Shown: piece after piece, positions 1 to 33,132 of the stretch
Numbering within the stretch: position 1 is the stretch's first letter
Layout: each line of letters opens with the position of its first letter
IMG/VR virus record: IMGVR_UViG_2531839455_000003
Strand: one strand, 5' to 3'
DNA length: 38,174 bases
Origin: a virus
Taxonomy: Duplodnaviria; Heunggongvirae; Uroviricota; Caudoviricetes
Notes under the pieces: model-generated
The model's input: the letters and a program-made list of their open reading frames with translations, nothing else
Databases searched by the model: none
Told to the model about the DNA's origin: nothing
Translations under genes and position numbers: made by a program

Positions 1-1293
<1,293 letters not shown>

Positions 1294-1314
1294 TACCCAA
1301 TTTTTCTGAATCTA

Positions 1315-1336
1315 AAAAGCGCCTGCGGGCGCTTTA
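1315..1336 (+). terminator. hairpin immediately 3' of serS (AAAGCGCC-TGCG-GGCGCTTT), probable serS terminator
   Basis: Perfect 8-bp GC-rich stem with 4-nt loop, 22 nt after the serS stop; only a short T tract follows. Confidence 0.4.
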
Positions 1337-1411
1337 AGAAGAAGTTTAACTATTTGAAAATAAATGGATTTTATTTTTAAGTGTCCATATAACGTCCATC
1401 TTTGAATGCAA

Positions 1412-1448
1412 AAAGCCCACAAATTCTATGCTGTGGGCTTTGTTTTTG
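1412..1448. terminator. intrinsic terminator-like hairpin (AAAGCCCACA / TGTGGGCTTT) with flanking A and T tracts
   Basis: 10-bp perfect stem, 10-nt loop, followed by GTTTTTGG and preceded by an A tract, so it could act in either direction. Confidence 0.5.
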
Positions 1449-1479
1449 GTGTCCTCATGAGTGAGGGAACCAAAAAGAA

Positions 1480-1512
1480 AACCCGCAGTTTTTACGCTGC
1501 GGGTTTGTTGTT
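1480..1512. terminator. second terminator-like hairpin (AACCCGCAG / CTGCGGGTT)
   Basis: 9-bp perfect stem, A-rich upstream, T-rich downstream (TGTTGTT). Confidence 0.45.
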
Positions 1513-1924
1513 CATGTCTGTGAGATAGGGTGCCTTATCGACCTTACCCTGGCAACCGATTGACGGGGGATTGCTCCCCCGTCGCGGTTTCCTTACTGCT
1601 TACACTGTAAGAACGCCGCAAACTCCGCTCCCCAGAAGCTCATCCGTATTTCACACAGCGAACCGTGCAGCATCCAGATTATGAGGATTACCGTCACGCA
1701 GAACGTGATGGCCGTAAGCGATTTTTGCGACATAGCGCTTGCTCCTTTGTTGGAGAGGCGCTAACCTATCACTTGCTTAAGGTAGATATGTTAGGGCCTC
1801 GGTTAAACAGAGATGTTTTCCGGGGCCTTTCCACATCCGGCCTTCGGGTATTCCCTCCGACCATCAGCCGAAAGGCACCCGCGCGTAATCTATCGCTTTT
1901 TTGTTACTCCGGCAATTCTGCCTG

Positions 1925-2185
1925 TTAATTCTGAGATAAAGGCAAACTCATCTGATTGTTTCCCCTGTGTGAAGCTGGCAACTCATGCCACGGGATACCT
2001 TCTGAAGAGTGAACGCCGGGGGCGTGTTTCGATGTGAATTTATGGAAAGCTTCCAGTGTTGAGAAACTTATGCCGCATTCCAGGTTGTTACACTGGTAAT
2101 ATTTTTTCCGTACGGTGTTTGAATCATTTTCCGAACGACTGGTGCGGATACGGGCAGATGCGCCACAAAGCGGACAACGGAACAT
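1925..2185 (-). CDS. ogr: Ogr/Delta-family zinc-finger late-gene transcriptional activator
   Basis: 86-aa ORF MFRCPLCGAS...YYQCNNLECG with CxxC-X22-CxxxxC cysteine spacing; SD AGGGAGG 5 nt upstream; sits next to D as in P2. Confidence 0.88.
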   Translation of the reverse strand: MFRCPLCGASARIRTSRSENDSNTVRKKYYQCNNLECGISFSTLEAFHKFTSKHAPGVHSSEGIPWHELPASHRGNNQMSLPLSQN

Positions 2186-2227
2186 AGCGACCTCCCTTAA
2201 CGTGGTGCTGCCGCTATTCTAAGTTGC

Positions 2228-3337
2228 TCACTCTGTTTCTGCTATCCATTCCGGGATTTTTGCTTCAAGCTCAAGCTGCGTGGTAAAGCCGCTGTTATCA
2301 ATGGTGTGCTCGGCTTTTACAATGATCCAGTCCTGATTATCAATCTCGCTTTTAAATCCTGTTACCGTACCATGCATTTCGGGGTAGAGTTCTGCACGTC
2401 CACGCGCCAGCGTGATGGAGAATGATGCGGCTCCGCGTTGTAGTTGCTGCCACTTTGCCGCCGCTGCGCGTCTTGCTGCCTGTTCGTTCTGATAGGTCTT
2501 GCGTAACACAAACACATTGCCTTCCGCGCCTTCCATATAATCTCCTTCACGGCTGCTGCTTTTCTCCTTTTGGGGTTTTGGTGGTTTGCGGCGTTTCACG
2601 CTGACTTTTTTCTTTTTCCCGTAATTAAGATCAAGCCAGTAGGCGCGTACCCCCGTATACGCCTCGCGGTCAGCAATACGGAACTGATGGCGATCGCCGC
2701 TGCTGCGTGTAATGGCGAACGAGGGCAACGGCTGGCCCTGTGCGTTCACGCCACCACCTGGCATGATGAATAACAGATTACCGCTTTTTACCGTGGTGAT
2801 TGCGCCCAGCATTTCCGCCATGCGCGTAAGGAAGGACATGTCGCTTTCTTCGGTCTGGTCGGCGTGGTCGATTTCGATATCCATCAGCATTTCGCTGATT
2901 TGCGGTTTCAGACCATACCGATGAGCGATGGCGGATACCACACGCTCAACGGTCACATCATGCCAGGACACCTCACGTTTAACGTTAAATTCATCCCGAA
3001 AATCTGCGCTTCTGGCTGAAACAGTCAGCCTGTCCGGCGGTCCTTCGTGAGCGATTTCATCAACAATGTAAGTGCCTTTTTCTGTCAGCGGTTCTCCCTT
3101 CCAGCCAATGAGAACCGTCAGGCGCGCGCCCCGTGGCGGTAGCTGCAACTGACCATCCGCATCATCCAGCGTGATGGTGAGCTGGTCCGCCTCAAATCCC
3201 CGGTTGTCGGTCAGTGACAGGCTCATCAGGCGCTCTGCCACGCCTGACAGCGTTTTACCCTCCGCGAGAATATCAAAATCCGGCATTTTCACGGGGTCTG
3301 TGCTCTGACTGAGCAATTGCATGGTGGTGTCGGTCAT
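2228..3337 (-). CDS. D: tail protein gpD (late control gene D family)
   Basis: Start trimmed to ATG at 3337 (MTDTTMQLLSQ..., SD GGGAGGGAA); the longer ORF to 3469 has no SD. Matches the P2 D protein family by memory. Confidence 0.88.
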   Translation of the reverse strand: MTDTTMQLLSQSTDPVKMPDFDILAEGKTLSGVAERLMSLSLTDNRGFEADQLTITLDDADGQLQLPPRGARLTVLIGWKGEPLTEKGTYIVDEIAHEGPPDRLTVSARSADFRDEFNVKREVSWHDVTVERVVSAIAHRYGLKPQISEMLMDIEIDHADQTEESDMSFLTRMAEMLGAITTVKSGNLLFIMPGGGVNAQGQPLPSFAITRSSGDRHQFRIADREAYTGVRAYWLDLNYGKKKKVSVKRRKPPKPQKEKSSSREGDYMEGAEGNVFVLRKTYQNEQAARRAAAAKWQQLQRGAASFSITLARGRAELYPEMHGTVTGFKSEIDNQDWIIVKAEHTIDNSGFTTQLELEAKIPEWIAETE

Positions 3338-3494
3338 CTGTTCCCTCCCTGTGCGGCATGGTCGCATGTGCGTGCGGAGGGGGTTACTGCTTTTTGTTGT
3401 CGCTGGGTCGGGAGAACGGCGCAGGGGTGAGATTACGCGCGTGGTGGGTGATGATTGTTGCCGAATCATTTAACGGATACAAGGGGCTGAAGCT

Positions 3495-4679
3495 ATGAGT
3501 GAAACTCGTTTTCATGGTGCCCGTGTTACGGAAAATACCGACCTGGTAACAGCGATTAACGATGTTGATTCCAGCGTTATCGGTATCGTGGCAACGGCGG
3601 ATGATGCGGACGCGAAGCTGTTCCCGCTGAATAAGCCCACACTGCTGACCCGCGTCAATGACGTGCTGGGAAAATGCGGGACAACGGGGACGCTTTATCG
3701 TGCGCTTAAGGCCATCGCAGACCAGGTGAGCACAAAGGTGATCGTCGTTCGCGTGGCTGAACACAAAGAAGAAGACGGAAAGACGCAGGATCAACTGGTT
3801 ATCGGTGGTTCTGAGGATGACGGCAGCTATACGGGGATGTATGCGCTGCTTGTTGCAGAGCAGGATGAAAGCATCGGATACCGTCCGCGTATTCTGGCCG
3901 CGCCGGAGCTGGACACGGAGGCTGCAACAAAATCCCTGTGCGTGATTGCAGGTAAACTGCGCGCGTTTGTGTATGCCTCATGTCACGGCTGTAACACGAT
4001 GGCTGAGGCGATTACCTACCGCCAGAAATTCAACGAACGTGAGGTGATGCTCTTATGGCCGGACTTCATCGCCTACAACCCGAAAAGTGGCAAAAACGAA
4101 ACGTTCCCCGCGCCTGCCTATGCGTGCGGCCTTCGTGCGTACATTGACCATGAGCAGGGCTGGCACAAATCGCTGTCCAACGTTCCGGTTAAAAATGTGC
4201 TGGGAATGTCCAGGCATGTGTTCTGGTCGTTGCAGGCCGAAGACAGCGATGCCAACAGCCTCAACAACAAAGAAATCACGACCATTATTCGTCGCAACGG
4301 GTTCCGCTTCTGGGGCAACCGCACACCGGAAACGAACGCCTACATCTTTGAGGTGTATACCCGAACCGCACAGGTGCTGGCTGATTCAATTGCGGAAGCG
4401 CAGTTTGAAACCATCGACAGTCCACTGACACCTGCGAACGTGAAGGATGTTATCAGCGCCATCAGGGCAAAACTGGATTCGCTGGTTACTGCCGGGAAAC
4501 TGATTGGTGCGGAGTGCTGGTATGACGTGGTGGATAACGGCACCACGAATTTACGTCAGGGACGTGTGCGTATTCGCTACAAATATACGCCTGTTCCCCC
4601 GCTGGAAGACATGGAGCTTTACCAGACGTTTACTGATGAATTCTTTGGTCCCGCATTTGCGGTGCTGGGAGGTGCCTGA
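3495..4679 (+). CDS. FI: contractile tail sheath protein gpFI
   Basis: 394 aa, the size of P2 FI; directly followed by the tube gene with overlapping stop/start (TGATG). Confidence 0.92.
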   Translation: MSETRFHGARVTENTDLVTAINDVDSSVIGIVATADDADAKLFPLNKPTLLTRVNDVLGKCGTTGTLYRALKAIADQVSTKVIVVRVAEHKEEDGKTQDQLVIGGSEDDGSYTGMYALLVAEQDESIGYRPRILAAPELDTEAATKSLCVIAGKLRAFVYASCHGCNTMAEAITYRQKFNEREVMLLWPDFIAYNPKSGKNETFPAPAYACGLRAYIDHEQGWHKSLSNVPVKNVLGMSRHVFWSLQAEDSDANSLNNKEITTIIRRNGFRFWGNRTPETNAYIFEVYTRTAQVLADSIAEAQFETIDSPLTPANVKDVISAIRAKLDSLVTAGKLIGAECWYDVVDNGTTNLRQGRVRIRYKYTPVPPLEDMELYQTFTDEFFGPAFAVLGGA

Positions 4680-5191
4680 TGGCTGTACCAAAACATCTTC
4701 GCTTTTTTACGTTGTTTGTGGATGGTGAAAACGAAGTGGGTAAAGTGACATCCGTCACGCCGCCCAAACTGACGCGCAAAACCGACAGCTATCGTGGTGG
4801 TGGCATGATGGGGGCGGTAAGTATTGATCTCGGTCTGGACGACTCCGCGCTTGATGCGAGTTTTGTCATGGGGGGAGCTGTTCGTGCGCTGTTCCTTAAA
4901 TATGGCGGCACGATTGACGGCACGCTGCTGCGTTTTGCGGGTGAATACTACACCGATGCAGAAAGCGATCTGTATGAAATCGAGATGCGCGGGCGTGTGA
5001 CGGAAATTGATATGGGGGAAGCCAAACAGGGTGAAGCCACATCACACACTTACGCTGTCAAAAACACCTACTACAAGCTGAGCGTTAACGATCGCCCGCT
5101 GTGGGAAATCGACCTGTTGAACCACATCTACCGGAAGGACGGCAAGGACATTGTGCCTGACCGTATCCGTTCCGCGCTTGGGCTTGGCTGA
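4679..5191 (+). CDS. FII: tail tube protein gpFII
   Basis: 170 aa; position and size match P2 FII. Confidence 0.92.
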   Translation: MAVPKHLRFFTLFVDGENEVGKVTSVTPPKLTRKTDSYRGGGMMGAVSIDLGLDDSALDASFVMGGAVRALFLKYGGTIDGTLLRFAGEYYTDAESDLYEIEMRGRVTEIDMGEAKQGEATSHTYAVKNTYYKLSVNDRPLWEIDLLNHIYRKDGKDIVPDRIRSALGLG

Positions 5192-5246
5192 TAAGTAATA
5201 TGCAGGCGGCGCAGTGCGTCGCCTCTGACTGAAAAGGAGACAACTG

Positions 5247-5621
5247 ATGAAAGACATCGATACTGAAACCCGGAATAACACCGTGGCGGATGATGTGACG
5301 GCAGGTGAGGATATGGCTGTCGAACGTGGCGTAAAACTGACCCGACCAATTGAGCGTGGTGGCGAAAAAATCACGTATGTGGAGATCACCGGGGCTATTG
5401 AGCAGGCTGGATCCCTGCGTGGTCTGTCGCTGTCTGATGTGCTGAATCTGAAAGCGGATACCATGTTTACGCTGTTGCCTCGCGTGACCTCGCCACGACT
5501 GGATGAAGTGATGATTAAAAAAATGTCGTCACGCGATTTTATTCAGTTGTGCGCTGTGGCTGTAAATTTTATGAGCGAGCCAGACTCTGGCGCGAAGAGC
5601 GTGCAGGAGACGGCAGCGTAA
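5247..5621 (+). CDS. E: tail assembly chaperone gpE (zero-frame product)
   Basis: 124-aa ORF with strong SD AAGGAGA 6 nt upstream; lies between the tube and tape-measure genes. Confidence 0.85.
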   Translation: MKDIDTETRNNTVADDVTAGEDMAVERGVKLTRPIERGGEKITYVEITGAIEQAGSLRGLSLSDVLNLKADTMFTLLPRVTSPRLDEVMIKKMSSRDFIQLCAVAVNFMSEPDSGAKSVQETAA

Positions 5622-5785
5622 TCACCCTGGTGTGCTTTGAGCACATCGAAGATCTGGTGGCGGATATTGCCGCCATTTTTAACTGGTCGCCCGCCGAAAT
5701 CTTCATGATGACGCCCGGCGAAGTGGTTAGCTGGCGCGAGCGGGCGGCACTTCGCAGCGGGAATGCAGATAATGAAGACTCTTGA
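5247..5785 (+). CDS. E': gpE+E' fusion made by a programmed -1 ribosomal frameshift (shift at about 5517-5523)
   Basis: The -1 frame opens right after a TAA at 5516-5518 and runs to 5785, overlapping the T start. A7 run at 5517-5523 is the candidate slippery site. Same arrangement as P2 E/E' and lambda G/GT. Confidence 0.6.
5517..5523 (+). other. candidate slippery heptamer AAAAAAA for the E/E' -1 frameshift
   Basis: Zero-frame codons AAA AAA (Lys-Lys) at 5517-5522; re-pairing of tRNA-Lys one base back gives the E' frame. Confidence 0.5.
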
Positions 5786-8579
5786 TATCCGGGTCGCTTT
5801 CAGCGCCGTTGACAGGCTGACCCGGCCTGCCGAAAACGCCCGCCGCCTGATGGGGCAGTTTGGTGACTCCATCCAGCGAACGCAGGGGGCGATCAAAAAT
5901 CTCGAGCGTCAGGCGCGTTCATTTGAGCGCGCCCGTGACGCTGTCAGTAAAGCGGATGCTGGCATCGTGAAAGCACGACGCCAGCTTAACGCCCTTAATC
6001 AGTTACAACGCACGGGTACAGTGCTCAGCGAAAAACAACAAAAGCTGATGCAGCAGTTAAGCACCCGGCTTGAACGCCTGAATGAATCGCGCACACGGGA
6101 AATTCAGAAAATGCGGGAGCTTGGCGGAGAGCTGAAACGCCACGGCATTTCCCTGACAGGCAGCGATAACACCATCCAGCAGGCCATCAGACGCACCGAA
6201 CAGTACAACAACCAGCTTGAACGCGAACGGCAGGCGCTTGCGCGTGTAACGCGGGCGCGTGAGCGGTATTCGCGCGCGCAGGAAACAGCGGGAAAACTGA
6301 AAACAGGTGGTGCGCTGGCAATTGGTGCGGCAGCGGCGGGCGGCTATGCTGCCGGGCGTTTTTTGCAGCCTGCGATCGGGTTCGGCAAAGAGATGTCCCG
6401 CGTTCAGGCACTGACGCGAATCGACCAGAACAGCCCGCAGTTTAAGGCGCTGCGTGAGCAGGCGTTAAAACTTGGCTCTGAAACGCAGTTCACCGCAGGC
6501 GATGCCGCCAGTGGACAGGCATTTCTTGCAATGGCTGGCTTCACTCCGCAGGCCATTCAGGCTGCGCTTCCCGGCGTGCTGAGCATGGCAACGGCTGGCG
6601 GTATGGATCTCGGCGAGACGGCAGATATTGGCTCAAATATCCTGACGCAGTTCGGCCTTTCTGCTGACCAGATGGACCGGGTCGGTGACACACTCACCGC
6701 AGCGTTTACCCGTACCAACACTGACCTTCGCGCACTGGGCGAAACCATGAAATATGCAGGTCCGGTGGCGGGTAAGCTGGGAATATCGCTGGAGCAGGCC
6801 GCAGCGATGGCTGGCGTGCTGGCGAATATGGGCATCAGAGGGAGTGATGCCGGGACGGCAATGCGTGCCAGCCTGGCTCGTCTGGCATCACCGCCAAAGG
6901 CGGCGGCAGAAGCTCTGAAAGAGCTGGGCGTGTCCGTCTCGGATGCCGGGGGCAAAATGCGCCCGATGGAGGATGTGCTGGCCGACCTTTATAAAGCCAC
7001 CCGCAAATACGGGGAAGTTGACCGGGTATCGTTCTTTAAGGACATTGCCGGAGAAGAGGCTTTCACATCGTTTATGGCGCTCGTTGATGCAGCGGGTGAC
7101 GGTTCCTTACCCAAACTGAGAAAAGAACTTGAAGGCGCGCGCGGTGAGGCTGAACGCACAGCAAAGGTTATGGCCAACAACCTTGACGGCGATCTGAAAT
7201 CACTCGGCAGTGCATGGGAAGGGGTGCGCATCCGCATTGCAGATCTGATTGACGGTCCGCTGCGTTCTGTCACGCAGTGGCTCACGCGGGTGGTCTCAAA
7301 AGTGACGGCACTGGCGCAGGCCCATCCGGCACTGACGCGCCAGTTACTGATAGCGGGAGGTGCACTGCTGGCGACAACAGCAACGGTTGGTTCGTTGTCT
7401 CTGGTTATTGGGGTGCTTCACGGGAAGCTGGCTACGTTACGTCTCGGTTTTTCTCTCCTGACCGGATCAATGAATGCTGTCAGGATCCTGCCAGCACTAT
7501 GGGGAATGGTGACGGGTTCCGTTTCTTTACTGGGAGGCGCTATCGGGGCGCTGATCAGTCCGGTTGGTCTTATCGTGGCTGCGCTTGCCGGAGCTGCCGT
7601 TCTTATCTGGAAATACTGGGATCCCATCAGGGCATTTTTTGCCGGGGTGTTCAGCGGGATTATGGAAAGGCTGACCCCGTTGCGCGAAACCTTTGAACGG
7701 TTTGGTCCTGTTTTTGACGCAATCGGAAGCGGGATCAGCCAGGTGTTTAACTGGTTTAAATCGCTGCTGTCACCGATGGAGTCCAGCAAGGAAACGCTGG
7801 ATAAATGTACCAGTGCTGGCGAGATATTCGGTAACGTTCTTGGCGGTGCGTTACAGCTTGTTCTGACACCTGCAAAAATGCTACTGGATACGCTGGCGTG
7901 GATACTTGAAAAACTTGGCGTCCTTCCGGATGAAGCGGAAAAGGCGCGCAAGAAAATCGAAGACGCACAGCGTGCGGCCATTCTTCAGGACAAGGTTGCC
8001 TTGCTTCAGGGGGACCTTGCGAAAATCAATCCGCCGAAGCCTGTGGAAAATGGCAATGGCACCGGAGGTGATAAACCCAAAGACAACAAACCGCTCACAG
8101 ACAGCAATACCGGGACGCTACGCAGACTCAGCAAAATTGCTGATAACACAGGTAAGCTGGTTGATGAGACGAAAAAACGCATTGGCCCTGGCGATATTGT
8201 CTTTAAGAACCTGCCCCGCGCACTTGCTGTTCGTGGGGAGTGGCAGGAGCGGAAGATTGCGCAGGTCAGTAAGCCTGCCCCCGCAATTAATATCACACCC
8301 GTAGTCCCGGCTCCGCTGCCTCCGGCGCTGGTCCCTGTTGTTGCGGCCAGCTCCCGCCCGGTGGCGGAGGCCATACGATCGCCAGTGGCATCAGTTCCTG
8401 CAGCTTCCCGTAATCGGGAGCCTGCTGTCTCCAGATTTGGCGGTGAAATTCATGTTCATCTGCATAACGTTGTTACGCAGAATCCCCGCGAACTGGCGAA
8501 ACTGGTCGGTGAAATGGTCAGGGCAGAGATGGAACGGCGCGCCCGTGCCGGACGTGGCAGTTTTTACGATAAAGATTGA
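5763..8579 (+). CDS. T: tail tape-measure protein gpT
   Basis: 938 aa, coiled-coil-rich N-terminus, hydrophobic Gly/Ala-rich middle; follows E/E'. Confidence 0.92.
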   Translation: MQIMKTLDIRVAFSAVDRLTRPAENARRLMGQFGDSIQRTQGAIKNLERQARSFERARDAVSKADAGIVKARRQLNALNQLQRTGTVLSEKQQKLMQQLSTRLERLNESRTREIQKMRELGGELKRHGISLTGSDNTIQQAIRRTEQYNNQLERERQALARVTRARERYSRAQETAGKLKTGGALAIGAAAAGGYAAGRFLQPAIGFGKEMSRVQALTRIDQNSPQFKALREQALKLGSETQFTAGDAASGQAFLAMAGFTPQAIQAALPGVLSMATAGGMDLGETADIGSNILTQFGLSADQMDRVGDTLTAAFTRTNTDLRALGETMKYAGPVAGKLGISLEQAAAMAGVLANMGIRGSDAGTAMRASLARLASPPKAAAEALKELGVSVSDAGGKMRPMEDVLADLYKATRKYGEVDRVSFFKDIAGEEAFTSFMALVDAAGDGSLPKLRKELEGARGEAERTAKVMANNLDGDLKSLGSAWEGVRIRIADLIDGPLRSVTQWLTRVVSKVTALAQAHPALTRQLLIAGGALLATTATVGSLSLVIGVLHGKLATLRLGFSLLTGSMNAVRILPALWGMVTGSVSLLGGAIGALISPVGLIVAALAGAAVLIWKYWDPIRAFFAGVFSGIMERLTPLRETFERFGPVFDAIGSGISQVFNWFKSLLSPMESSKETLDKCTSAGEIFGNVLGGALQLVLTPAKMLLDTLAWILEKLGVLPDEAEKARKKIEDAQRAAILQDKVALLQGDLAKINPPKPVENGNGTGGDKPKDNKPLTDSNTGTLRRLSKIADNTGKLVDETKKRIGPGDIVFKNLPRALAVRGEWQERKIAQVSKPAPAINITPVVPAPLPPALVPVVAASSRPVAEAIRSPVASVPAASRNREPAVSRFGGEIHVHLHNVVTQNPRELAKLVGEMVRAEMERRARAGRGSFYDKD

Positions 8580-8591
8580 GGAGTCATGGTC

Positions 8592-9080
8592 ATGATGATG
8601 ATCTACGGCATGTTTGTTTTTGAGCTGCGCACACTGCCGCATCAGCAGTTACAGCAAAACAAAAGCTGGCGGCATGTGAAAAATGAACGCGTTAACCGTT
8701 CAGCAAGCTGGCAGTATATAGGTGCAGGTGATGATCGCATTGTGCTTTCCGGCATGCTTTATCCTGAAATTACAGGTGGTGAAGTGTCGCTTTCGTTGCT
8801 GACCACGCAGGCATATACAGGACGCCCCTGGCCTCTGATTGATGGTGTCGGGCAGATTTACGGCATGTATGTGCTGACTGAAACGAATACGACCCGTTCC
8901 GAGTTTGATCGCTACGGTAAGGCGAAAAAGATAGAATTTTCACTGACCCTTGAACGCTGTGATGAGGATTTGCGGGAGCGCCTGCAATCCTCATCATTCA
9001 GCGATATGCTGTCCGGCTTCAAAGATAAGGTGACATCATCTCTTAACAGCGCGGCCAGTTCAGTTAAAGGGCTGTTCTGA
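8592..9080 (+). CDS. U: tail protein gpU
   Basis: MMMIYGMFVFELRTLP... resembles the P2 U N-terminus (MMVLGLFVF); SD GAGGAG 8 nt upstream of ATG 8592; the ORF could also start at 8586. Confidence 0.86.
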   Translation: MMMIYGMFVFELRTLPHQQLQQNKSWRHVKNERVNRSASWQYIGAGDDRIVLSGMLYPEITGGEVSLSLLTTQAYTGRPWPLIDGVGQIYGMYVLTETNTTRSEFDRYGKAKKIEFSLTLERCDEDLRERLQSSSFSDMLSGFKDKVTSSLNSAASSVKGLF

Positions 9081-9091
9081 TTTAACACAAA

Positions 9092-9117
9092 AACCGCTAA
9101 TGGCCAGATTAGCGGTT
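9092..9117. terminator. bidirectional terminator hairpin between convergent U and invertase genes
   Basis: AACCGCTAAT-GGCCAG-ATTAGCGGTT, perfect 10-bp stem, T-rich downstream (ATTTTGTTTTCTG), A-rich upstream; overlaps the invertase stop codon. Confidence 0.6.
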
Positions 9118-9702
9118 ATTTTGTTTTCTGACTCTTCTCTATTGTTCCACTTGATTCTCCTGCGGGGTGGTAACGATAAATCGTCGATGTACCAATGCCG
9201 TAAATTATTGCCAGTTGTTTTCTGTCGTGACCGTTTTTAATCAGCCTTGCTATTTGCTCATGCTGTTCTTTTGTCAGCTTCGGTCGACGTCCGCCTGTGC
9301 GCCCCCGTGCGCGCGCTGCCGCCAGTCCGGCCAGTGTACGTTCAACAATTAATTCACGTTCCATTTCAGCCAGGGCACCCATCACGTGGAAGAAAAAACG
9401 CCCCATTGGAGAAGATGTATCTATGCTGTCGGTCAGACTGCGAAAATTAATCCCTCGCTCCCGTAGTTCCCCGACGAGAGAAATCAGATGTTTCATGCTT
9501 CGCCCGAGGCGATCCAGTTTCCAGACAACCAGCGTGTCACCTTTTGAAGACGCTTTAAAGCGCGTTTTAATCCCGGTCGGTCTGTCTTTGTCCCGCTTAA
9601 TTTATCTTCAAATATTTGTTCACATCCTGCACAAACAAGAGCGTTTCGTTGCAGGTCTGTATTCTGGTCATTTGTTGATACCCTGACATAGCCAATCAGC
9701 AT
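9116..9702 (-). pseudogene. pin: Pin/Gin/Hin-family serine DNA invertase, disrupted by a 1-nt frameshift
   Basis: N-terminal ORF MLIGYVRVSTNDQNTDLQRNALVCAGCEQIFEDKLSGT...LKRLQK (catalytic Ser motif) and C-terminal ORF MKHLISLVGELRERGINFRSLTDSIDTSSPMGRFFFHVMGALAEMEREL are in different frames. Reading AAG-GTG-ACA-CGC as AAG-G-GT-GAC-ACG restores ...KGDTLVVWKLDRLGRSMKHL, so one G is missing from a G run at about plus 9540. Confidence 0.85.
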
Positions 9703-9756
9703 TCTGAATCTCCCGTCCAAAAGCGCAAATCATGCCATGCAGGCCGGAAACGGCCA

Positions 9757-9782
9757 TTATCTAAAACCTCGGTTTACAGGAA
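9757..9782. other. gix/pix-like 26-bp inversion crossover site (right)
   Basis: TTATCTAAAACCTCGGTTTACAGGAA; one mismatch from the Mu gixL sequence as I recall it; lies beside the invertase 5' end. Confidence 0.8.
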
Positions 9783-10727
9783 ACGGTAAATCAGGCTTCT
9801 GGCGCATTACAGAAAAACCAGAACGGCGCAGATATTCCGGGAAAAGATACCTTCACCAAAAATATTGGGGCCTGCCGCGCATATAGCGCATGGCTGGATA
9901 TTGGTGGCGATAGTCAGGTCTGGACAACCGCGCAATTTATTTCGTGGCTGGAGAGTCAGGGAGCATTTAACCATCCTTACTGGATGTGCAAAGGCTCATG
10001 GGCTTATGCAAATAATAAGGTCATTACAGATACAGGTTGCGGAAATATTTGTCTTGCAGGTGCTGTGGTGGAAGTTATTGGCACTCGCGGCGCAATGACC
10101 ATACGCGTTACTACGCCGAGCACGTCCAGCGGTGGCGGAATTACTAACGCTCAATTCACTTATATTAATCATGGTGATGCTTATGCTCCTGGCTGGCGAC
10201 GAGACTACAACACGAAAAACCAGCAGCCTGCATTTGCTTTAGGGCAAACAGGAAGCAGGGTTGCAAATGATAAAGCTGTTGGCTGGAACTGGAATAGCGG
10301 TGTTTATGATGCAGATATCAGCGGTGCATCGACATTAATCCTCCACTTCAATATGAATGCGGGGAGTTGCCCTGCCGTACAGTTCCGTGTGAATTATAAG
10401 AACGGCGGTATTTTTTATCGTTCAGCACGTGATGGTTATGGATTTGAGGCTAACTGGTCAGAGTTTTACACCACAACCCGCAAACCCTCTGCGGGAGATG
10501 TTGGTGCATATACGCAGGCAGAATGTAACTCAAGGTTTATTACAGGTATTCGCCTTGGCGGTCTGTCATCTGTTCAGACATGGAATGGCCCCGGCTGGTC
10601 TGACAGGTCAGGTTATGTCGTTACGGGTTCAGTTAACGGAAACCGTGATGAATTAATTGATACAACTCAGGCAAGGCCAATTCAGTATTGCATTAATGGG
10701 ACGTGGTATAACGCGGGGAGTATTTAA
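9765..10727 (+). CDS. alternative tail-fibre C-terminal variable segment, promoterless and start-less; fused to the constant H N-terminus only after inversion
   Basis: Frame is open from inside the gix site ([15 protein letters not shown]...) to stop at 10725-10727. Shares the site-encoded LGLQETVN and the C-terminal INGTWYN motif with H. Confidence 0.75.
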   Translation, partial: NLGLQETVNQASGALQKNQNGADIPGKDTFTKNIGACRAYSAWLDIGGDSQVWTTAQFISWLESQGAFNHPYWMCKGSWAYANNKVITDTGCGNICLAGAVVEVIGTRGAMTIRVTTPSTSSGGGITNAQFTYINHGDAYAPGWRRDYNTKNQQPAFALGQTGSRVANDKAVGWNWNSGVYDADISGASTLILHFNMNAGSCPAVQFRVNYKNGGIFYRSARDGYGFEANWSEFYTTTRKPSAGDVGAYTQAECNSRFITGIRLGGLSSVQTWNGPGWSDRSGYVVTGSVNGNRDELIDTTQARPIQYCINGTWYNAGSI

Positions 10728-10729
10728 CG

Positions 10730-11263
10730 ATGATGCACTTAAAAAACATTACTGCTGGCAACCCTAAAACAAAAGAGCAATACCAGCTAACAAAGCAATT
10801 TAACATCAAATGGCTTTATTCAGATGATGGAAAAAACTGGTATGAGGAACAAAAGAATTTCCAGCCAGACACTTTGAAAATGGTCTATGGCCATAACGGC
10901 GTTATTATTTGTATTGAAAAGGATGTTTCAGCAATTAATCCGGAAGGCGCAAGCGTCGTTGAATTACCTGATATTACAGCAAATCGCCGTGCTGACATTT
11001 CGGGTAAATGGATGTTCAAAGATGGCGTAGTGGTAAAGCGAACTTATACCGAGGAAGAGCAGAGGCAGCAGGCGGAAAATGAAAAGCAAAGCCTGCTACA
11101 GCTCGTCAGGGATAAAACCCAGCTATGGGACTCACAGCTACGGCTGGGCATCATTTCCGACGAGAATAAACAAAAATTAACAGAGTGGATGTTCTTTGCG
11201 CAGAAAGTCGAATCTACAGACACTTCCAGCCTGCCAGTAACGTTTCCCGAACAACCTGAATGA
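10730..11263 (+). CDS. tail-fibre assembly protein (alternative copy, Tfa/gpG-like)
   Basis: 177 aa; N-terminus MMHLKNITAGNPKTKEQYQLTK... parallels the other tfa copy; follows the alternative fibre segment. Confidence 0.85.
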   Translation: MMHLKNITAGNPKTKEQYQLTKQFNIKWLYSDDGKNWYEEQKNFQPDTLKMVYGHNGVIICIEKDVSAINPEGASVVELPDITANRRADISGKWMFKDGVVVKRTYTEEEQRQQAENEKQSLLQLVRDKTQLWDSQLRLGIISDENKQKLTEWMFFAQKVESTDTSSLPVTFPEQPE

Positions 11264-11266
11264 GAC

Positions 11267-11290
11267 AAGGCCCGATAGCGGGCCTTAATT
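11267..11290. terminator. bidirectional hairpin between the convergent tfa genes
   Basis: AAGGCCCG-ATAG-CGGGCCTT followed by AATTTTTATT. Confidence 0.5.
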
Positions 11291-11291
11291 T

Positions 11292-11819
11292 TTATTCAGG
11301 CTTTTGTGGCCATTCAGGATTTGCCGTATCCACACGGTTGACCAGAACACTGTAGCGTTCCCATGACTCCAGTCGTGCGCGTTCCTCATCCGTCGCCATA
11401 TTCAGCCTGACAGCGCGTTCCAGCGGCTGGATGACTGATTCAGCTTCGGAAAGCAATGCGGCCTTTTGTGATTCGGCCTGTTGTTGCTGTTCGTCAGCCG
11501 TATAAATCCGTTTAACCACAGCTCCGTCCTTAAACATCCACTTTCCTGAATCATCAGCGCGGCGGTTGGCTGTTATATCGGGAACCTCAACGACGCTAAA
11601 ACCTTCAGGGTTAAGCGTGGAGGCATCTTTAGTGATGGCGACAATAATATTATTTGCATCGTAAACAATCTTTATTGTGTCTGGCTGAAAGTTTTTCACT
11701 TCCTCATACCAGTTTTTTCCGTCCTCAGAGTAAAGCCAGATAACTCCGTGTTTCTTTGTTAACTCATACTGTTCCAGTGTTTTAGCGTTACCCGCTTTTA
11801 TGTTCTTTAAGTGCATCAT
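11292..11819 (-). CDS. G: tail-fibre assembly protein (currently expressed copy, gpG-like)
   Basis: 175 aa, [22 protein letters not shown]...; immediately downstream of H on the same strand. Confidence 0.88.
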
Positions 11820-11820
11820 A

Positions 11821-13983
11821 TTAAACGCTCGCTACATTATACCAGGTGCCATTTATATACTTTTGAACGGGTCTGTAATAAACGCCCGCTATATTATCGG
11901 CAGAGTTGGAGCCTGTATCCTGAACATTAATACCAGACAATACATGACCTGACGGGCACTGGAAATTCCATGTTTGCCAGTTGTTCACTCCATAATATTG
12001 CTGTGAACCAAGTCGAACATCTTTCACATATCTGGAATCAAAATTGCCATAATTGCCGGGAATAACTTGCGCACCGCAAAGCCAGTTCCCGTTATTATCC
12101 ATGTACGCCTGACCATCGGTACCATTGGCTGTCCTTGAGTTATTAATCATGTAGATGCCAAATTGCTTATTTCCCAGACCGCCAATCATAAATTTTCGGT
12201 CGGCATGGTCCTGACGGAGCAAGGCCTGGGCGCTATCAGTGTTAACTATATTTTTCCCAAAGATAGCGTTGTTATCGCGCATCTGAATCCACATACCATT
12301 ACCGCTGTTAATAGCAAAACGGTCTGAAAGTGTTTCTCCTGAAACATTAAGGCCACGCCCCATCGAAACAGCGCCAGTAGCGTTATTAATCCATAATGGC
12401 CTTAATCCGTTATAAGTCCCCATGTTGTCACCGGAGTTTGTCAACATGAAGTATGTATTTGAACCATCATTACGAATAAAGAATCCGTAATTACCATAAG
12501 CAATACGTAGGCCGTTTGCTGATTTTGATATGACTTCGCCATTTACAATGGCATTGACAAGAACATACAAAGCATCCCATTTAAGATTCATCAGGTCTTT
12601 TGTTGTGGTGCTTTGTTTGCTTCTCCATTTGAAATATTCATTGCCGTTGTCGCCTGTTTCAAACCACATGTATGAATCAGTGTCACCATCGGCATCATTT
12701 TTAAATCCAATCTTTGCCCAGTCAGTATTTCGAATCCAGGCAAGGATTGAGTCATTTTCAAAAGTAAGCCCACCGGACAAGGTATCGCCATTTTTTTGCA
12801 CGGCGTTACCAGCCCTGTTTACCGTTTCCTGTAAACCGAGGTATTCGATAACAGCGGCAACGGTCGATTTCGCAAGAATATCCCGCCCGACTTCTGTCAG
12901 GGTTGCCAGACTGGCAACATCATTCCCCGTAAAATACGGAAACCTGTCTGCTGCAGTAGCAAGCCCGGCCAGCGCCGTCAGGGTGGCATCTTTCGGTTGC
13001 TTACCCGCAAGCGCGTTAGTCATGGTGGTCGCAAAATTCGGGTCGTTGCCCAGCGCCGCCGCCAGCTCGTTCAGCGTGTTCAGTGCGTCAGGTGAAGAGT
13101 CTACAAGTGCGGCAATCGCGGCCATAACGAAAGCCGTGCTTGCGATTTGGGTATTATTCGTTCCCTGTTGTGCAGTTGGTGTTGTTGGCGTTCCGGTCAG
13201 TGCCGGGCTGTTTAATGGGGCTTTCTTGTTCGTTTCATCCATTACCGCCTTAACCGCTTTTGGTGTCGCTGCCAGCGTTTCAGACGTGCTGTTGGTTGCA
13301 CTGCTGAGCTGGACTATCCCTTTTCGTGCCGTCGTGGCGTCCTGAGCGGTATATTTTCCGTTAGCCAGGTCATACGCGGCCTTAACCGCTTTCGGCGTTG
13401 CAGCCAGCGTTTCAGAATCGCTGTTAGTGGCGCTACTGAGTTGAACAAAGCCTTTTGCGGTCAGCGAGGCATCCGGGTGACGTCGTGACTGTTCATGCTC
13501 TTTCAGTTTGTCATCCACGTAATCCACTGTGGCCATCACCATGGTGTTATCCACGGTAAGCGCCACGGTGGCAGTGCTGGATACGGTCAGAATGGTGCGA
13601 AATGTTTGTGCACGTCCTGACCCTTCGGCAACGGTTGGCTTGTAACTTTCGGCAGTATTGCCTACTGCGATTAAATCGCCGTGCTCATCAAACACACCAA
13701 TTTCCCGGATCCAGAATCCGCCCGTTTCTGGAGGAATAACCAGCTCCGCAATAATGCGGTTCTGATGTGTTGCGTCCAGGATGACGCGATTAACAGTGTG
13801 TCGCCACACCTCATGCACCAGACGGGTCTGCTTACTGTCTGGTGTGGGCAACGTGCCGCCACCGTCGCCCACGGCCATATGAGTCAGGCGGACAGGCTTA
13901 CCATCTGGCGCGGCTGCCTGAGCTAATTTTTTTGCACCCGTATCGGTGATAACGGTTTTAAATTTTCGTGTTGTGGTACTCAT
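11821..13983 (-). CDS. H: tail fibre protein gpH (constant N-terminus plus current variable C-terminus)
   Basis: 720 aa; N-terminus [31 protein letters not shown] is P2 H-like; contains the left gix-like site at 12826-12851 in frame. Confidence 0.92.
12826..12851. other. gix/pix-like 26-bp inversion crossover site (left), inside H
   Basis: TTCCTGTAAACCGAGGTATTCGATAA, inverted relative to the site at 9757-9782. Confidence 0.8.
13247..13446 (-). repeat. intragenic tandem direct repeat in H (two ~68-bp copies, 132-bp period)
   Basis: Copies at 13247-13314 and 13379-13446 encode the repeated peptide [22 protein letters not shown]. Confidence 0.7.
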
Positions 13984-13985
13984 GC

Positions 13986-14516
13986 TTAATCGTCCGGATA
14001 AATGGTAATGACTTCACCGTCGTAAGTTGCTGCCGCCGCGAAAATATCTCCCGGGATCTCCTGAATGATATTCAGCCCTGTCATGTGGCGGCTGACCGGG
14101 CGGGCATCAGCAATCAACCGCTCCATTTCCAGATACATTTCCTCCGTCACGCCACTGTCCAGCGTGCCGACTTCAACGGTAAATGTTCCCGGTTCTCCGT
14201 CGAACTCCCACCACTCAGACACGCGAATGAGGTATCCCAGCGGCTCAATGGCCCGGCGCAGTGCGCTGATGGTCCCTTTGTGTCGGTGTATCAGCCATGC
14301 ATCACGAATCACCTGTCGCTTTGTCTCTTCCGGCCAGTTGCGATCCCAGCGGTCAACGGAAAATGCCCAGGCGAGATAAGGCAGCAAATGCACCGGGCAG
14401 GTGTCCGGTGACCACAGCGTGTTGAGGTCTACCGGGATGTCTGTAATGCGCGCTCCGACAGCTTCGGCGCAACGCATGAAACGGCTGGCTGATGGCGGTA
14501 ACAGTGAATTACTCAT
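13986..14516 (-). CDS. I: baseplate/tail protein gpI
   Basis: Start trimmed to ATG 14516 (MSNSLLPPSAS..., SD AAGGTGGG); small overlap with the J stop. Confidence 0.85.
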   Translation of the reverse strand: MSNSLLPPSASRFMRCAEAVGARITDIPVDLNTLWSPDTCPVHLLPYLAWAFSVDRWDRNWPEETKRQVIRDAWLIHRHKGTISALRRAIEPLGYLIRVSEWWEFDGEPGTFTVEVGTLDSGVTEEMYLEMERLIADARPVSRHMTGLNIIQEIPGDIFAAAATYDGEVITIYPDD

Positions 14517-25617: not shown

Positions 25618-25654
25618 TTGTGCAAATTTGTGCACTATTGTGCATTTGTATAGT
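25618..25654 (+). promoter_or_regulatory. three helically phased TTGTGCA direct repeats with a candidate -10 (TATAGT) upstream of the cargo operon
   Basis: TTGTGCA at 25618, 25628 and 25638 (exact 10-bp spacing); TATAGT at 25649-25654; about 70 nt upstream of ATG 25724. Confidence 0.4.
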
Positions 25655-25723
25655 GAAAAAAATATAGCAGAAAGTATACTTAGCGCCTTGTGGGCTACGT
25701 TAACTTTGCAGGAACATTTGGAA

Positions 25724-27103
25724 ATGAAAAAAATCAATAAAGAAGATTCTAAAAGAACCTTTTTACGTGGATGGTTGCGATTTCTTCGTAGCGTTGAGAG
25801 AGCTAAGAAAAAAAAGCCTGCGCAAGAGAAAAATGGTAGTCTTCGTTTTTCCGATGAAACAACTCCTGTCCAAAACCAAGTCGCTACGTTCATTGAAAAT
25901 ATATCGATTATAAAAGAGTATGACTCATCAATTCTTCGTCGTGACGCAGAGAAGATATTAATACCTAAATATTTTGACTTATATGACAATCCAGAGAAAT
26001 CTCTGCTATTTATTAGTGCAGCCACAAAATTAATTGCAAGAGGTAAATGGAAATCATATATTTTTGATTACAAGAAAAACAAAAAACACTGTCTTGGTCT
26101 TGAGTGTCTATTAGGTGTTGCTCTTACAGCAGCAAGGCAAAGTAATATAAATTTCAAAGATACGATGATTCAGATTAATGGTATCTACCCTAAAGATGAA
26201 CAGTATCTTGAAATTATCAGGGATGTCGGGCTTGTAAAAGAGATTAGTAATGCTGCACCAGGTAAAGTTCTGGACTCTACTGAAGCATCGAAAAAAGCGA
26301 ATCCGAAGAAACGAATCTTCTCTGCTGATAGTATCGGAAAGGAGAATGCTTCTGCCTTTGCCCATGACAGAAAAAATGTCACTGCTGAAAAATTTACCGC
26401 ATACATAAACGAATGCTTAAATGATCATAATTTAAAACTTGTACATGAGGCAGAAAAGCATTTAACTTCCTGCATGGGGGAACTCCTTGATAATGCGGAG
26501 CGGCATTGTGGGTTAGAGCAACGCCCACGCTGGTATTTGAGAGGTTTTGTTAATAATAACGTACGAAACCCCATATGTGAGTTGGCTGTTTTCAATTTTG
26601 GGAAAACTATCAGCGAAACTTTTGATAATTTACCTGAGGATCATTTTTCATTAAGTCAACAAGTTAATCCATACATAAATAAGCATATTAAGAAAAAGGG
26701 TATGTTTAAGGAAGGATTAACAACAGTAGCGGCCTTGCAAGGGCGGGTGAGTTGTAAAAACGAGAAAGAAACTGACAGTTCTGGCACCGGAACAATTGAA
26801 TTATTGAAGTTATTTCAAGATATGCATGATAATCTTAAAAAAATGGGAAGAGATATTAAAGGTGGGATAAAAATGACTTTAATATCTGGTAGTACTCATA
26901 TTAACTTTGATGGATCATATAAATTAAAGCAAAGGTTGGTTAATGACGAGGAAAGTGACATTTTTACTTACCCTTTTAATGATGTAGGGCTTGAATCTGA
27001 ACCGGATCGCAACTATCTTAAGCGTATGAAGGATGCTCGATTTCCTGGAGTTATGATCAATATTCGTTTTCCTCTACCAGAAAACGCCACCCAGCGAACT
27101 TGA
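25724..27103 (+). CDS. cargo gene 1: predicted GHKL/Bergerat-fold ATPase-like protein (possible Ser/His-kinase-type), function unknown
   Basis: 459 aa from the first ATG; AT-rich. N-box-like motif GELLDNAERH (E-x3-N-A-x2-H), then a degenerate G1-like FNFGKT and a G2-like SSGTGTIELL glycine loop in the C-terminal half. Confidence 0.7.
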   Translation: MKKINKEDSKRTFLRGWLRFLRSVERAKKKKPAQEKNGSLRFSDETTPVQNQVATFIENISIIKEYDSSILRRDAEKILIPKYFDLYDNPEKSLLFISAATKLIARGKWKSYIFDYKKNKKHCLGLECLLGVALTAARQSNINFKDTMIQINGIYPKDEQYLEIIRDVGLVKEISNAAPGKVLDSTEASKKANPKKRIFSADSIGKENASAFAHDRKNVTAEKFTAYINECLNDHNLKLVHEAEKHLTSCMGELLDNAERHCGLEQRPRWYLRGFVNNNVRNPICELAVFNFGKTISETFDNLPEDHFSLSQQVNPYINKHIKKKGMFKEGLTTVAALQGRVSCKNEKETDSSGTGTIELLKLFQDMHDNLKKMGRDIKGGIKMTLISGSTHINFDGSYKLKQRLVNDEESDIFTYPFNDVGLESEPDRNYLKRMKDARFPGVMINIRFPLPENATQRT

Positions 27104-27113
27104 GGACAGGTAC

Positions 27114-27458
27114 ATGAAAATGGCTGACATCACCATAGATTTCAATAAGTTAGTAAAAGATAGTAACAAGAAACTTTTTGCTGGACGTTCTAATGGGCGC
27201 CAGGCCTATGATTACTTTAATATAGGGAAATTTTGCACAACCAGTAATGATAGATTATATCTATTGATCCCCAAGGGAATTGTTGTATCAAGCTCATACT
27301 TTCTAGGTATGCTTGAAACGGTTTTGCCGAAATTTTCTTCGCCTAGCGAATTTTATAGTCGCACTGTACTTGATGGTCGTGAATATAAAGAAGGTATGCT
27401 TTCTGAATTAGATAGAGCTGTAAGGAGAGGCTTACATAAAAATGTTCCCTTCTTTTAA
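27114..27458 (+). CDS. cargo gene 2: small cytoplasmic protein, possible STAS-like (anti-sigma-antagonist fold) partner
   Basis: 114 aa, 10 nt after the gene 1 stop (SD GGACAGG). Motif LYLLIPKGIVVSSSYFLGMLETV resembles the beta-strand plus DSSG serine loop of SpoIIAA/RsbV-type STAS domains; assigned by motif only. Confidence 0.6.
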   Translation: MKMADITIDFNKLVKDSNKKLFAGRSNGRQAYDYFNIGKFCTTSNDRLYLLIPKGIVVSSSYFLGMLETVLPKFSSPSEFYSRTVLDGREYKEGMLSELDRAVRRGLHKNVPFF

Positions 27459-28251
27459 AAATATTTTTCAAATCAAAATGACAGCGCTGTCTGTCATTTT
27501 TTTTATATTCCCCGCAGCTTGCTCTGTGACAGATTTTTCCAATAAAGAAAACATTGAATGTAATGAGTCACTTTATCCAAACACGCCTTTTTATATTTCC
27601 GATTCAGGACTTAGTGGTATATCATCACCGTTTTTGTTATCCGGAAACCCGAATGATGGCTTGATGTTTTGTGAAAAGGCAAACGACACCTTTCATAAGT
27701 TATCTCTGGCAAGGGATAACAAAAAAGATTTATTTGCTAATTATTTCAAAGATGTTCCAAATTCCTATGATATATATAATATTGTAAAGGTTCCGGAAAA
27801 TGGTCCAGAGTGGATTTCTATTGGCATCTCTTTATTTGCTTTAGTTTCATCCTTTGTTATTCCTTGTGTTCAACATAGAAAAGAACGTAAAGAAGCTATT
27901 AATGAAGGGTATTGGGTAAGAGAAGTAATTATGCCTAAAATTAATGGGTTGGCATTCGATGTTGTGCAAAGTTTTAAAAACTCCATGGCATTATCAGAAG
28001 AGGAGTTTCTTAGTGTATTCAGTAATACTCTTTTACCAAAACTAGGAGAGTTACGGGATTCATTATATTTGTTTAATAGTTTTCCAGAATTAAATGCAGA
28101 TATTGAAAATCTAGAAAGTATTTGTGACTCCTTGGAGGAAGAAGTTTCCAATCATATAGACTCGCCTAATGAAATAAGAATTTCTGATATATCAATGTTT
28201 CATTCCAAATTAATACAGAAATTAATTTTACTTCATAAGAAGATAGGTTGA
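27442..28251 (+). CDS. cargo gene 3: membrane protein (N-terminal signal/anchor plus internal TM helix), candidate effector
   Basis: 269 aa. Start overlaps the gene 2 end by 17 nt; SD AAGGAGAGG upstream. N-terminal hydrophobic segment MTALSVIFFIFPAAC, internal TM EWISIGISLFALVSSFVIPCV, acidic C-terminal domain. Confidence 0.65.
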   Translation: MFPSFKNIFQIKMTALSVIFFIFPAACSVTDFSNKENIECNESLYPNTPFYISDSGLSGISSPFLLSGNPNDGLMFCEKANDTFHKLSLARDNKKDLFANYFKDVPNSYDIYNIVKVPENGPEWISIGISLFALVSSFVIPCVQHRKERKEAINEGYWVREVIMPKINGLAFDVVQSFKNSMALSEEEFLSVFSNTLLPKLGELRDSLYLFNSFPELNADIENLESICDSLEEEVSNHIDSPNEIRISDISMFHSKLIQKLILLHKKIG

Positions 28252-28296
28252 TTTTCAAGGCCTCCTTATTCCTAGGGCGGCCTTAGCTCTATATTT

Positions 28297-31044: not shown

Positions 31045-31050
31045 ACTGAT

Positions 31051-31416: not shown

Positions 31417-31488
31417 TGCGGCAATCCTCTTGTTACAGATGTGCGAAGGCCTCCCGCCGCAAGGTGCAGGAAAGGCCCGGAACAGGAA

Positions 31489-32084: not shown

Positions 32085-32090
32085 GTTTAA

Positions 32091-33121: not shown

Positions 33122-33132
33122 ATCACGGTCCT

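Follow-up and report, generated by a model that had tools for sequence, protein, structure and literature searches.

Fibre switches of the Gin/Cin/Pin type are textbook knowledge. In phages Mu and P1 inversion is known to change the host range (PMC12529663), and a cis-located enhancer some 100 bp away from one recombination site is a trait of the family (PMC3798978). Systems of this type further depend on Fis and negative supercoiling and cut with a 2-bp stagger through a phosphoserine link. Prophage e14 of E. coli carries an invertible fibre cassette, the P segment with the invertase PinE, which is also inverted by PinQ of prophage Qin, so that the action of an invertase in trans is established; the classic gin-complementing function of e14 is cited in the same work (PMC12529663). 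In P2-like prophages of E. coli inversion has been shown by sequencing and PCR, and in EPEC E2348/69 both orientations coexist in the population at the fibre loci of such prophages, one of these loci being a three-site shufflon (Goldberg et al. 2014; PMC4272514). The GenBank record of phage P88 annotates an invertase together with doubled fibre and assembly genes; in the P88 host-range paper and in a paper on a C. rodentium prophage inversion is undescribed and only an ORF is named 'DNA invertase'. In P2 itself the H-G pair is fixed, as the earlier reading of the present DNA from its sequence only (hereafter the sequence-only reading) had correctly stated; fun(Z) comes directly after G, and a second site, Sv'-U' and an invertase are all lacking.

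The window (i.e. the whole stretch of 38,174 nt of viral DNA analysed here, IMG/VR record IMGVR_UViG_2531839455_000003) contains a P88-like prophage (Xuanwuvirus, Peduoviridae; P2 family) that adjoins serS of an E. coli-type chromosome. Positions 1472-25646 and 28338-35390 exhibit 94-97% nucleotide identity to the type phage P88 over nearly the whole phage, while the integrase and immunity end is different and an extra 2.7-kb cargo is present at 25.6-28.3 kb; the cargo genes without a P88 counterpart gave zero matches in Pfam and PADLOC scans. The late gene set is of the P2 type (L, X, R, S, V, W, J, I, H, G, FI, FII, E, T, U, D and ogr), as assigned by Pfam searches with the called genes of a locus 99.99% identical to the window (L006) and by the annotation of P88. 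These genes follow the usual P88-type order, in which FI-FII-E-T-U (3495-9080) is convergent with V-W-J-I-H-G and D is encoded on the other strand (2228-3469); the strict order of P2, with V-G and the FI-D operon co-directional and fun(Z) between them, is absent. Because the FI-FII-E-T-U block is inverted relative to P2, the invertase gene abuts the 3' end of the tail gene U (8586-9080, plus strand), with a bidirectional, terminator-like hairpin (9092-9117, from a repeat and consensus scan) separating U from the minus-strand invertase gene. The placement of the switch at the P2 Z/fun position by the sequence-only reading thus holds in that the cassette comes directly after G, but not beyond it, since the next block is inverted with respect to P2 and D lies on the far side.

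The inverted repeats on which any such switch depends were recognized correctly at the outset as two gix-like sites of 26 bp. The invertase-proximal one (9757-9782, minus strand, central dinucleotide at 9769-9770) agrees with Mu gix in 25/26 positions, and the one within the coding sequence of H (12826-12851, plus strand, central dinucleotide at 12838-12839) in 24/26, both with the central GA of Mu. The proposed alignment also extended to P1, whose cix sites differ by a central AA/TT and by matching gix in only 19-21 of 26 positions. The reverse complement of the proximal site reads TTCCTGTAAACC GA GGTTTTAGATAA, and the distal site in the same sense reads TTCCTGTAAACC GA GGTATTCGATAA, so that the inner half-sites are identical, the mismatches are confined to the outer halves, and the mutual identity is 24/26 rather than the 23/26 given previously. 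Both sites are identical to the two sites of P88. A pattern scan of the 38 kb allowing up to three mismatches returned exactly these two sites, and none in 100 shuffles. The inverted repeat continues inwards, extending over 61 nt with 79% identity (9757-9817 and 12791-12851). The junction peptide LGLQETVN, deduced earlier, is indeed encoded in frame across both sites, and H of P2 retains a single gix-like copy (25/26) in the codons that correspond to the distal site of the window.

Translation and domain assignment bear out that the sites bracket two convergent assembly genes and two alternative fibre C-termini. H in the window comprises 720 aa, i.e. 381 constant and 339 variable residues. The constant N-terminal part (12841-13983, minus strand), located outside the invertible segment, is 83% identical to residues 4-378 of P2 gpH and contains the Pfam domains Phage_tail_fib and Phage_fiber_2; in Mu, by contrast, the constant part is Sc, of just 169 aa, and in P88 H is longer (764 aa, 78% identical). 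The variable C-terminus in the expressed position (11821-12840, minus strand, ending in [11 protein letters not shown]) is Sv-like, being 87% identical to Mu Sv, with a Gp34_trimer domain and a match to the structure of the Mu tail fibre S (PDB 5yvq_A, E 9e-201). It is followed by a chaperone (11292-11819, minus strand) that is 92% identical to Mu U and 90% to P2 G and matches PDB 5yvq_B (E 8e-104), the other chain of that Mu S-U complex. The silent alternative (9768-10727, plus strand, 319 aa, ending in INGTWYNAGSI) corresponds to Sv', with 96.6% amino acid identity to that of Mu and a gp37_C domain; it lacks an independent start codon and is preceded, immediately beyond the site, by a TAA. 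Its chaperone (10730-11263, plus strand), likewise silent in the window orientation, is 95.5% identical to Mu U'. Each variable part is thus followed by its own chaperone and the two pairs converge, the chaperones being 57% identical to each other and both members of PF02413 (Caudo_TAP). Between them a G+C-rich hairpin (11267-11286), found by a consensus scan only, was called terminator-like on the plus strand, with the T-run on its 3' side; it would presumably also stop the minus-strand transcript.

Since one gix site lies inside H, inversion fuses the 381 constant residues to either Sv or Sv'. The crossover point is within the fibre ORF and the reading frame is kept in both fusions, yielding the H of 720 aa or an H' of 700 aa, which agrees with the predicted swap of about 330 for about 320 residues (339 and 319 in fact), each with its own chaperone; the 700-aa H' is actually called as a gene in three loci (L016, L020 and L021). 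The window is in the equivalent of the Mu G(+) state, H-Sv-U. By analogy with Mu, a Gin-family serine invertase would exchange strands at the central GA of the two inverted sites, with the assistance of the enhancer in the 5' part of its gene and of host Fis, so that H-Sv followed by U would alternate with H-Sv' followed by U' and the receptor-binding tip of the fibre would be changed. The dependence on Fis and the enhancer is expected from the same analogy, as is an effect of inversion on the host range of P88-like phages.

A direct homologue with the same architecture is the Mu G segment with gin: nucleotide identity is ~93% across the segment and the first two-thirds of the invertase gene (to window position 9324), the Sv, Sv', U and U' proteins are 87-97% identical to their counterparts, the enhancer stretch is identical, and in both systems transcription of the invertase gene leads away from the segment. 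On the other hand, the C-terminal DNA-binding domain of the window invertase diverges from Gin, its gene is frameshifted, and the com/mom module is absent beyond it. The C segment of P1 follows the same logic, with U, U' and parts of Sv and Sv' ~91% identical at the nucleotide level and an enhancer within the 5' part of cin, but the segment measures 4.2 kb and cin points towards it, overlapping cixL. The e14 and Qin elements differ in being lambdoid defective prophages with other sites, a 1.8-kb segment and fibre genes that serve defence and not the virion. The sequence-only reading was right in recognizing a true Mu G/P1 C-type cassette in a P2-family prophage, although it took the switch to be a working one and missed the frameshift in the cis invertase, and wrong in regarding the switch as an installation peculiar to one prophage. 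It is the normal organization of P88-like phages, already annotated in GenBank: P88 and other Xuanwuvirus have the same gene order around the cassette, the region is 94% identical to P88 at the nucleotide level, and the P88 annotation together with the demonstrated inversion (PMC4272514) makes the fibre switch of P2-family prophages already known. As a discovery the finding therefore matters little, and its value lies in two modest points, annotation and the cross-talk of invertases. As regards the former, a fibre ORF in such prophages represents one of two states, and studies of the host range of P88 have ignored the second fibre.

The invertase gene of the window (9116-9702, minus strand, ATG at 9702) is a pseudogene. 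Alignment to the P88 invertase and Mu gin reveals a deletion of 1 nt in a run of A residues, reduced from five (A5) to four (A4), at 9542-9545 (nt 158-161 of the gene), which shifts the frame after K54 and leads to a 69-aa product with a stop at 9493-9495. The repaired translation of 195 aa is identical to the intact (A5) P88 invertase except for the start codon and shares 156 of 195 residues with Mu Gin, most differences occurring after residue 130; it contains the Resolvase and HTH_7 domains and the Ser9 motif YVRVSTNDQ, and matches the crystal structures of Gin (4m6f and 3uj3, E ~1e-100). The window gene lacks the intact frame of Gin/Hin/Cin/Pin systems, and we classify the element as a member of this type by descent, with an inactivated cis enzyme. 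Nucleotides 19-110 of the gene are identical to Mu gin, and the stretch corresponding to nt 19-90 (9613-9684, minus strand) is homologous to the recombinational (Fis) enhancer, which the P1 record annotates at nt 19-90 of cin; it may therefore retain enhancer function. A promoter scan of the cassette found three sigma-70-like sites, i.e. fewer than in shuffles (7.5), and is uninformative on the expression of the invertase.

The enzyme could still be supplied in cis if ribosomes slipped by -1 on CAA-AAG-G (tRNA-Lys moving from AAG to AAA). A_AAG is a shift-prone motif in E. coli, and slippage here would restore the wild-type ...LQK-GDT... and produce some full-length protein equal to the P88 invertase, the remaining 126 codons, readable from an internal ATG at 9496, being free of further defects. 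However, the site falls short of a full X_XXY_YYZ heptamer, no stimulatory structure is found, and the intact downstream ORF is uninformative on selection because all A4 copies are nearly clonal. The next 77 nt fold more weakly than shuffles (z = +1.04), for which reason programmed frameshifting, considered as a rescue of the invertase, was demoted to an explanation of low probability; we regard such leaky expression as improbable.

The possibility, raised at the outset, that only one orientation is ever found was looked at in complete E. coli genomes, and both occur: 93 genomes have the window orientation and 105 the inverted one, counted as a match at ≥80% coverage in one place and with the inverted query made in silico. 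At least one match to the region is present in 3,179 of 5,426 complete genomes, the median number of places per genome being 2. The sibling isolates 2020N21-110 and 2020N21-110-15 (L004 and L005) are related by a clean inversion that switches within the common CTCGGTTTACAGGAAACGGTAAA core. The breakpoints, inside the gix core, can be placed only within the 23 identical nucleotides, so that by sequence alone an invertase and RecA are not separated, and invertase-independent homologous recombination between the two imperfect 61-nt arms of the inverted repeat is compatible with them. Yet the stretch of unbroken identity is only ~23-30 bp long, which does not exceed the length normally needed for efficient RecA recombination, and the ~1:1 ratio of orientations in ~200 genomes, together with the difference between siblings, fits a fast site-specific switch, which makes a RecA-driven inversion very improbable.

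The A4 allele, linked to a C-to-T substitution 4 nt upstream of the A-run, recurs in at least seven other assemblies (L006/L017, L009, L010, L018, L019, L020 and L024) with different accession prefixes. It was found in no complete E. coli genome of the collection (best match 99.1%) and is known from draft assemblies only, and a deletion in a homopolymer that is missing from complete RefSeq genomes could in principle be an error of sequencing or assembly, the invertase being in fact intact. The recurrence of A4 with the linked substitution across differently prefixed assemblies argues against an artefact, as do two close relatives (L016 and L021) in which the substitution is combined with A5, apparently the ancestral state; we consider such an error hardly credible.

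The A4 carriers can be compared with one another. L019 (1 mismatch to the window in 9,534 bp) and L020, located in contigs of 145,962 bp each, are both A4 and 100% identical over 8,919 bp, the one difference being that the 3,027-bp interior is exactly reverse-complemented, and L024 adds another A4 carrier with the segment inverted. Since near-identical A4 copies exist in both orientations, the segment most likely still flips by means of an invertase acting in trans. With the cis enzyme dead, a related invertase from another locus in the cell, most likely that of a co-resident element, would carry out the inversion. Fin of Fels-2, a P2-like prophage, is reported to be an active Hin-complementing invertase (work attributed to Kutsukake and colleagues, 2006, and cited in PMC4272514 and PMC12529663). 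Alternatively, the frameshift may have locked the prophage as H-Sv-U, the opposite A4 orientation either predating the deletion or reflecting independent deletions within that A-run, which in principle could give both orientations. This is consistent with the clearly broken ORF, with the window orientation of the majority of the A4 carriers retrieved, and with independent knock-outs of the invertase in related prophages (the frameshift delC36 in L007 and the nonsense mutation Q17* in L008), which suggest that its loss is common. However, the opposite-orientation carriers have the linked substitution in common and are otherwise identical, and a single deletion with a later inversion is more parsimonious than identical deletions arising in parallel on the same background, so that we regard a frozen relic as unlikely.

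We therefore favour, as the probable explanation, a site-specific inversion switch of the Mu G-segment type, carried by a P88-like prophage, whose copy with the frameshifted invertase is still flipped in trans. The more far-reaching statement, that a prophage which lost its own invertase has passed the control of its host range to the invertase of another resident element, is put forward tentatively, as a serious possibility that falls a little short of probable. The A4 lineage is a natural test case for the cross-talk of prophage invertases, as both orientations occur although its own enzyme is dead; the A4, delC36 and Q17* knock-outs, taken together, hint that outsourcing or deliberate locking of the switch is recurrent in the P88 family.

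Both 26-bp sites proposed in the sequence-only reading are present, at 9757-9782 (as the reverse complement, TTCCTGTAAACC-GA-GGTTTTAGATAA) and, within the coding sequence of the tail fibre gene H, at 12826-12851 (TTCCTGTAAACC-GA-GGTATTCGATAA). They were found to be identical at 24/26 positions rather than the 23/26 claimed; the outer half-sites account for both mismatches, and the two sites share their central dinucleotide. Exactly two such sites (with up to three mismatches) occur in the 38-kb window and none in 100 shuffles, and a repeat finder extended the inverted repeat inward from the sites to 61 nt at 79%. The resemblance to Mu gix, put to alignment, held at 25/26 and 24/26 identities, and both sites are identical to those of P88; P1 cix is further from them and has a different central dinucleotide. 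Phage P2, without an invertase or a second site, carries a solo gix-like site in H (TTCCTGTAAACCGAGATATTCGATAA, 4858-4883), in codons homologous to those of the window and with 25/26 identity to the H-side site.

That the site lies inside coding sequence was borne out, as translation continues in frame across both copies. H (11821-13983, - strand, 720 aa) reads across 12826-12851, and the silent alternative C-terminus (9768-10727, + strand) is open in frame throughout, with a TAA immediately beyond the site. The expressed variable part comprises 339 aa and the silent one, which ends in INGTWYNAGSI, 319 aa, close to the exchange of about 330 for 320 residues that had been proposed. The two convergent assembly genes expected between the sites are there as well, at 10730-11263 (+ strand) and 11292-11819 (- strand), both encoding Caudo_TAP chaperones and separated by a terminator-like hairpin (11267-11286). 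The constant part of H contains a 96-nt direct repeat (75%; 13247-13342 and 13379-13474), encoding a duplicated fibre repeat (Pfam Phage_fiber_2), and H ranges from 661 to 764 aa among relatives.

The description of the cassette as "G-segment-like" turned out to be an understatement: window 9324-12858, which covers the segment together with two-thirds of the invertase gene from its 5' end, is a close homologue of G plus gin of Mu and D108 (~93% nucleotide identity), while the C segment of P1 is ~91% identical to that of the window and P88 (Peduoviridae, Xuanwuvirus) shows 94% identity over 93% of window 9000-14000. At the protein level, Sv, Sv', U and U' are 87%, 96.6%, 92% and 95.5% identical to their Mu counterparts, whereas the constant part of H (381 aa) and U exhibit 83% and 90% identity to gpH and gpG of P2, respectively. 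Matches in the PDB agree with these protein identities: 5yvq, the complex of Mu S and U (E 9e-201 and 8e-104), and, for the invertase, Gin (4m6f/3uj3, E about 1e-100).

Both the original 8600-14500 and a version inverted in silico (crossover placed at 9769/9770 and 12838/12839) were used as queries in a search of 5,426 complete E. coli genomes. At a coverage of at least 80% in one place, the window arrangement was found in 93 genomes and the inverted one in 105, and these counts are separate because a genome of the opposite orientation reaches at most ~52% in one place. Related isolates occur in both lists; in the junction alignment of isolate 2020N21-110 with its derivative 2020N21-110-15, flanks and interiors are exchanged, with the switch point within the shared CTCGGTTTACAGGAAACGGTAAA, which includes the central dinucleotide. 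Several short-read contigs (L010, L012-L014, L023 and L025) terminate at or just inside a gix site or in the conserved portion at the 5' end of the invertase gene, a pattern expected of a genome in which both orientations coexist or in which the invertase and fibre loci have paralogues.

The cassette is a known system that was correctly recognised, since the P88 GenBank record already has the invertase annotated, as well as the fibre and assembly genes in doubled form, coexisting orientations of fibre loci have been documented by sequencing and PCR in P2-like prophages of EPEC (PMC4272514), and, in a domain-wide survey, the gene families with enrichment at programmed inversions include those for tail fibre, fibre assembly and "phage tail protein I" (PMC9881135). 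The fibre switch goes unmentioned in the P88 host-range paper, which is an omission of that paper; the mechanism itself is known. The earlier interpretation was largely right; it was also over-rated, and incomplete in missing that the invertase gene is broken. The sole unusual twist is the combination of a dead invertase in cis with evidence of continued flipping.

The invertase gene (- strand, ATG at 9702) carries a 1-nt deletion relative to both the P88 and Mu genes, which shortens a run of five A residues to four (A5 to A4) at 9542-9545. Its product would comprise 54 native and 15 out-of-frame residues before a stop, while restoration of one A yields a protein of 195 aa that is the same as the P88 invertase except for the start codon (ATG in the window, GTG in both P88 and Mu). 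A sequencing artefact was considered, and a one-off error was rejected as the source of A4, because the same allele is found, together with a C-to-T substitution linked to it 4 nt upstream of the run, in comparison loci L006/L017, L009, L010, L018, L019, L020 and L024; between L006 and the window there is a single mismatch over 19,496 bp. Assemblies with A4 include GCA_049980045.1 and GCA_014427545.1. In the relatives L016 and L021, the C-to-T substitution is accompanied by A5; A4 was found in no complete E. coli genome of the collection searched. Two other P88-like prophages have independent knock-outs of the gene (at about 9790-10381 of their loci), L007 by loss of one nucleotide at gene position 36 (delC36) and L008 by C49T, resulting in Q17stop, and loss of the cis invertase seems to be recurrent in such prophages.

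The stretch of the gene homologous to the enhancer, which in P1 cin is annotated at nt 19-90, has the same sequence as Mu gin across nt 19-110; directly adjoining this stretch, nt 18 of the gene in the window bears a silent A to C change. Judged by sequence, this putative enhancer fits the layout of the family, in which a 65-bp Fis enhancer lies ~100 bp from one site (PMC3798978).

Two A4 carriers, L019 (GCA_048120845.1) and L020 (GCA_022871305.1), both on contigs of 145,962 bp, show 100% identity over 8,919 bp apart from an interior of 3,027 bp that is exactly reverse-complemented; over 9,534 bp, a single base separates L019 from the window. L024 likewise combines A4 with the inverted orientation. 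Most simply read, these loci indicate that inversion continued after the frameshift arose; a frozen relic, with parallel deletions, was considered as the alternative. As to the enzyme, leaky -1 slippage on CAA-AAG-G would regenerate the wild-type invertase protein, but no stimulatory structure is present downstream, and RecA recombination across the inverted repeat would have only ~23 bp of identity to act on. Members of this invertase family are active in trans, as PinQ of Qin is in inverting the P segment of e14 (PMC12529663, which also cites a gin-complementing function of e14), and according to our search of complete genomes most E. coli genomes contain more than one such locus; for these reasons the favoured enzyme source is a co-resident invertase, which would act on the A4 segment in trans.

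The window starts with serS (1-1293) and is collinear with P88 at 94-97% over 1472-35390, except for a 2.7-kb insert (25.6-28.3 kb); it also differs from P88 at the integrase end. The late genes belong to the P2 set but follow the order of P88 and not that of P2: FI-FII-E-T-U (3495-9080, + strand) are convergent with V-W-J-I-H-G (- strand), the invertase gene lies between the 3' end of late gene U and the invertible segment, and D is on the other strand (2228-3469), whereas in P2 V-G and FI-D run in the same direction with fun(Z) in between. The proposed Z/fun position thus stands insofar as the cassette follows G, the place of fun(Z) in P2; the surrounding genes, however, are rearranged. Between the portal and replication genes, three ORFs (491, 114 and 269 aa; 25628-28251, + strand) constitute an uncharacterised cargo cassette, without Pfam or PADLOC matches, in a region (25646-28338) without a match in P88; in phages of the P2 type, accessory or defence genes are frequent at this site.

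Among related copies, L009 (GCA_000713575.1, JOSF01000114.1) contains at 1-7700 a lambdoid J-lom-stf block (1057-aa fibre) fused to a different Sv allele, beyond which the U/U'/Sv'/A4-invertase/T...serS sequence is as in the window; it represents either recombination between fibre loci of two prophages or a chimeric assembly. In L018 (GCA_040813265.1), an otherwise identical prophage with A4, H is interrupted by an IS21-family element (rve transposase and IstB, 5958-7759). The same U' and a 98.8%-identical segment were found in L022 (GCA_048985525.1, 1748-6587), adjoining genes for a 184-aa invertase and IncFII_repA on a contig of plasmid type; chromosomal prophages and plasmid elements thus have the cassette in common.
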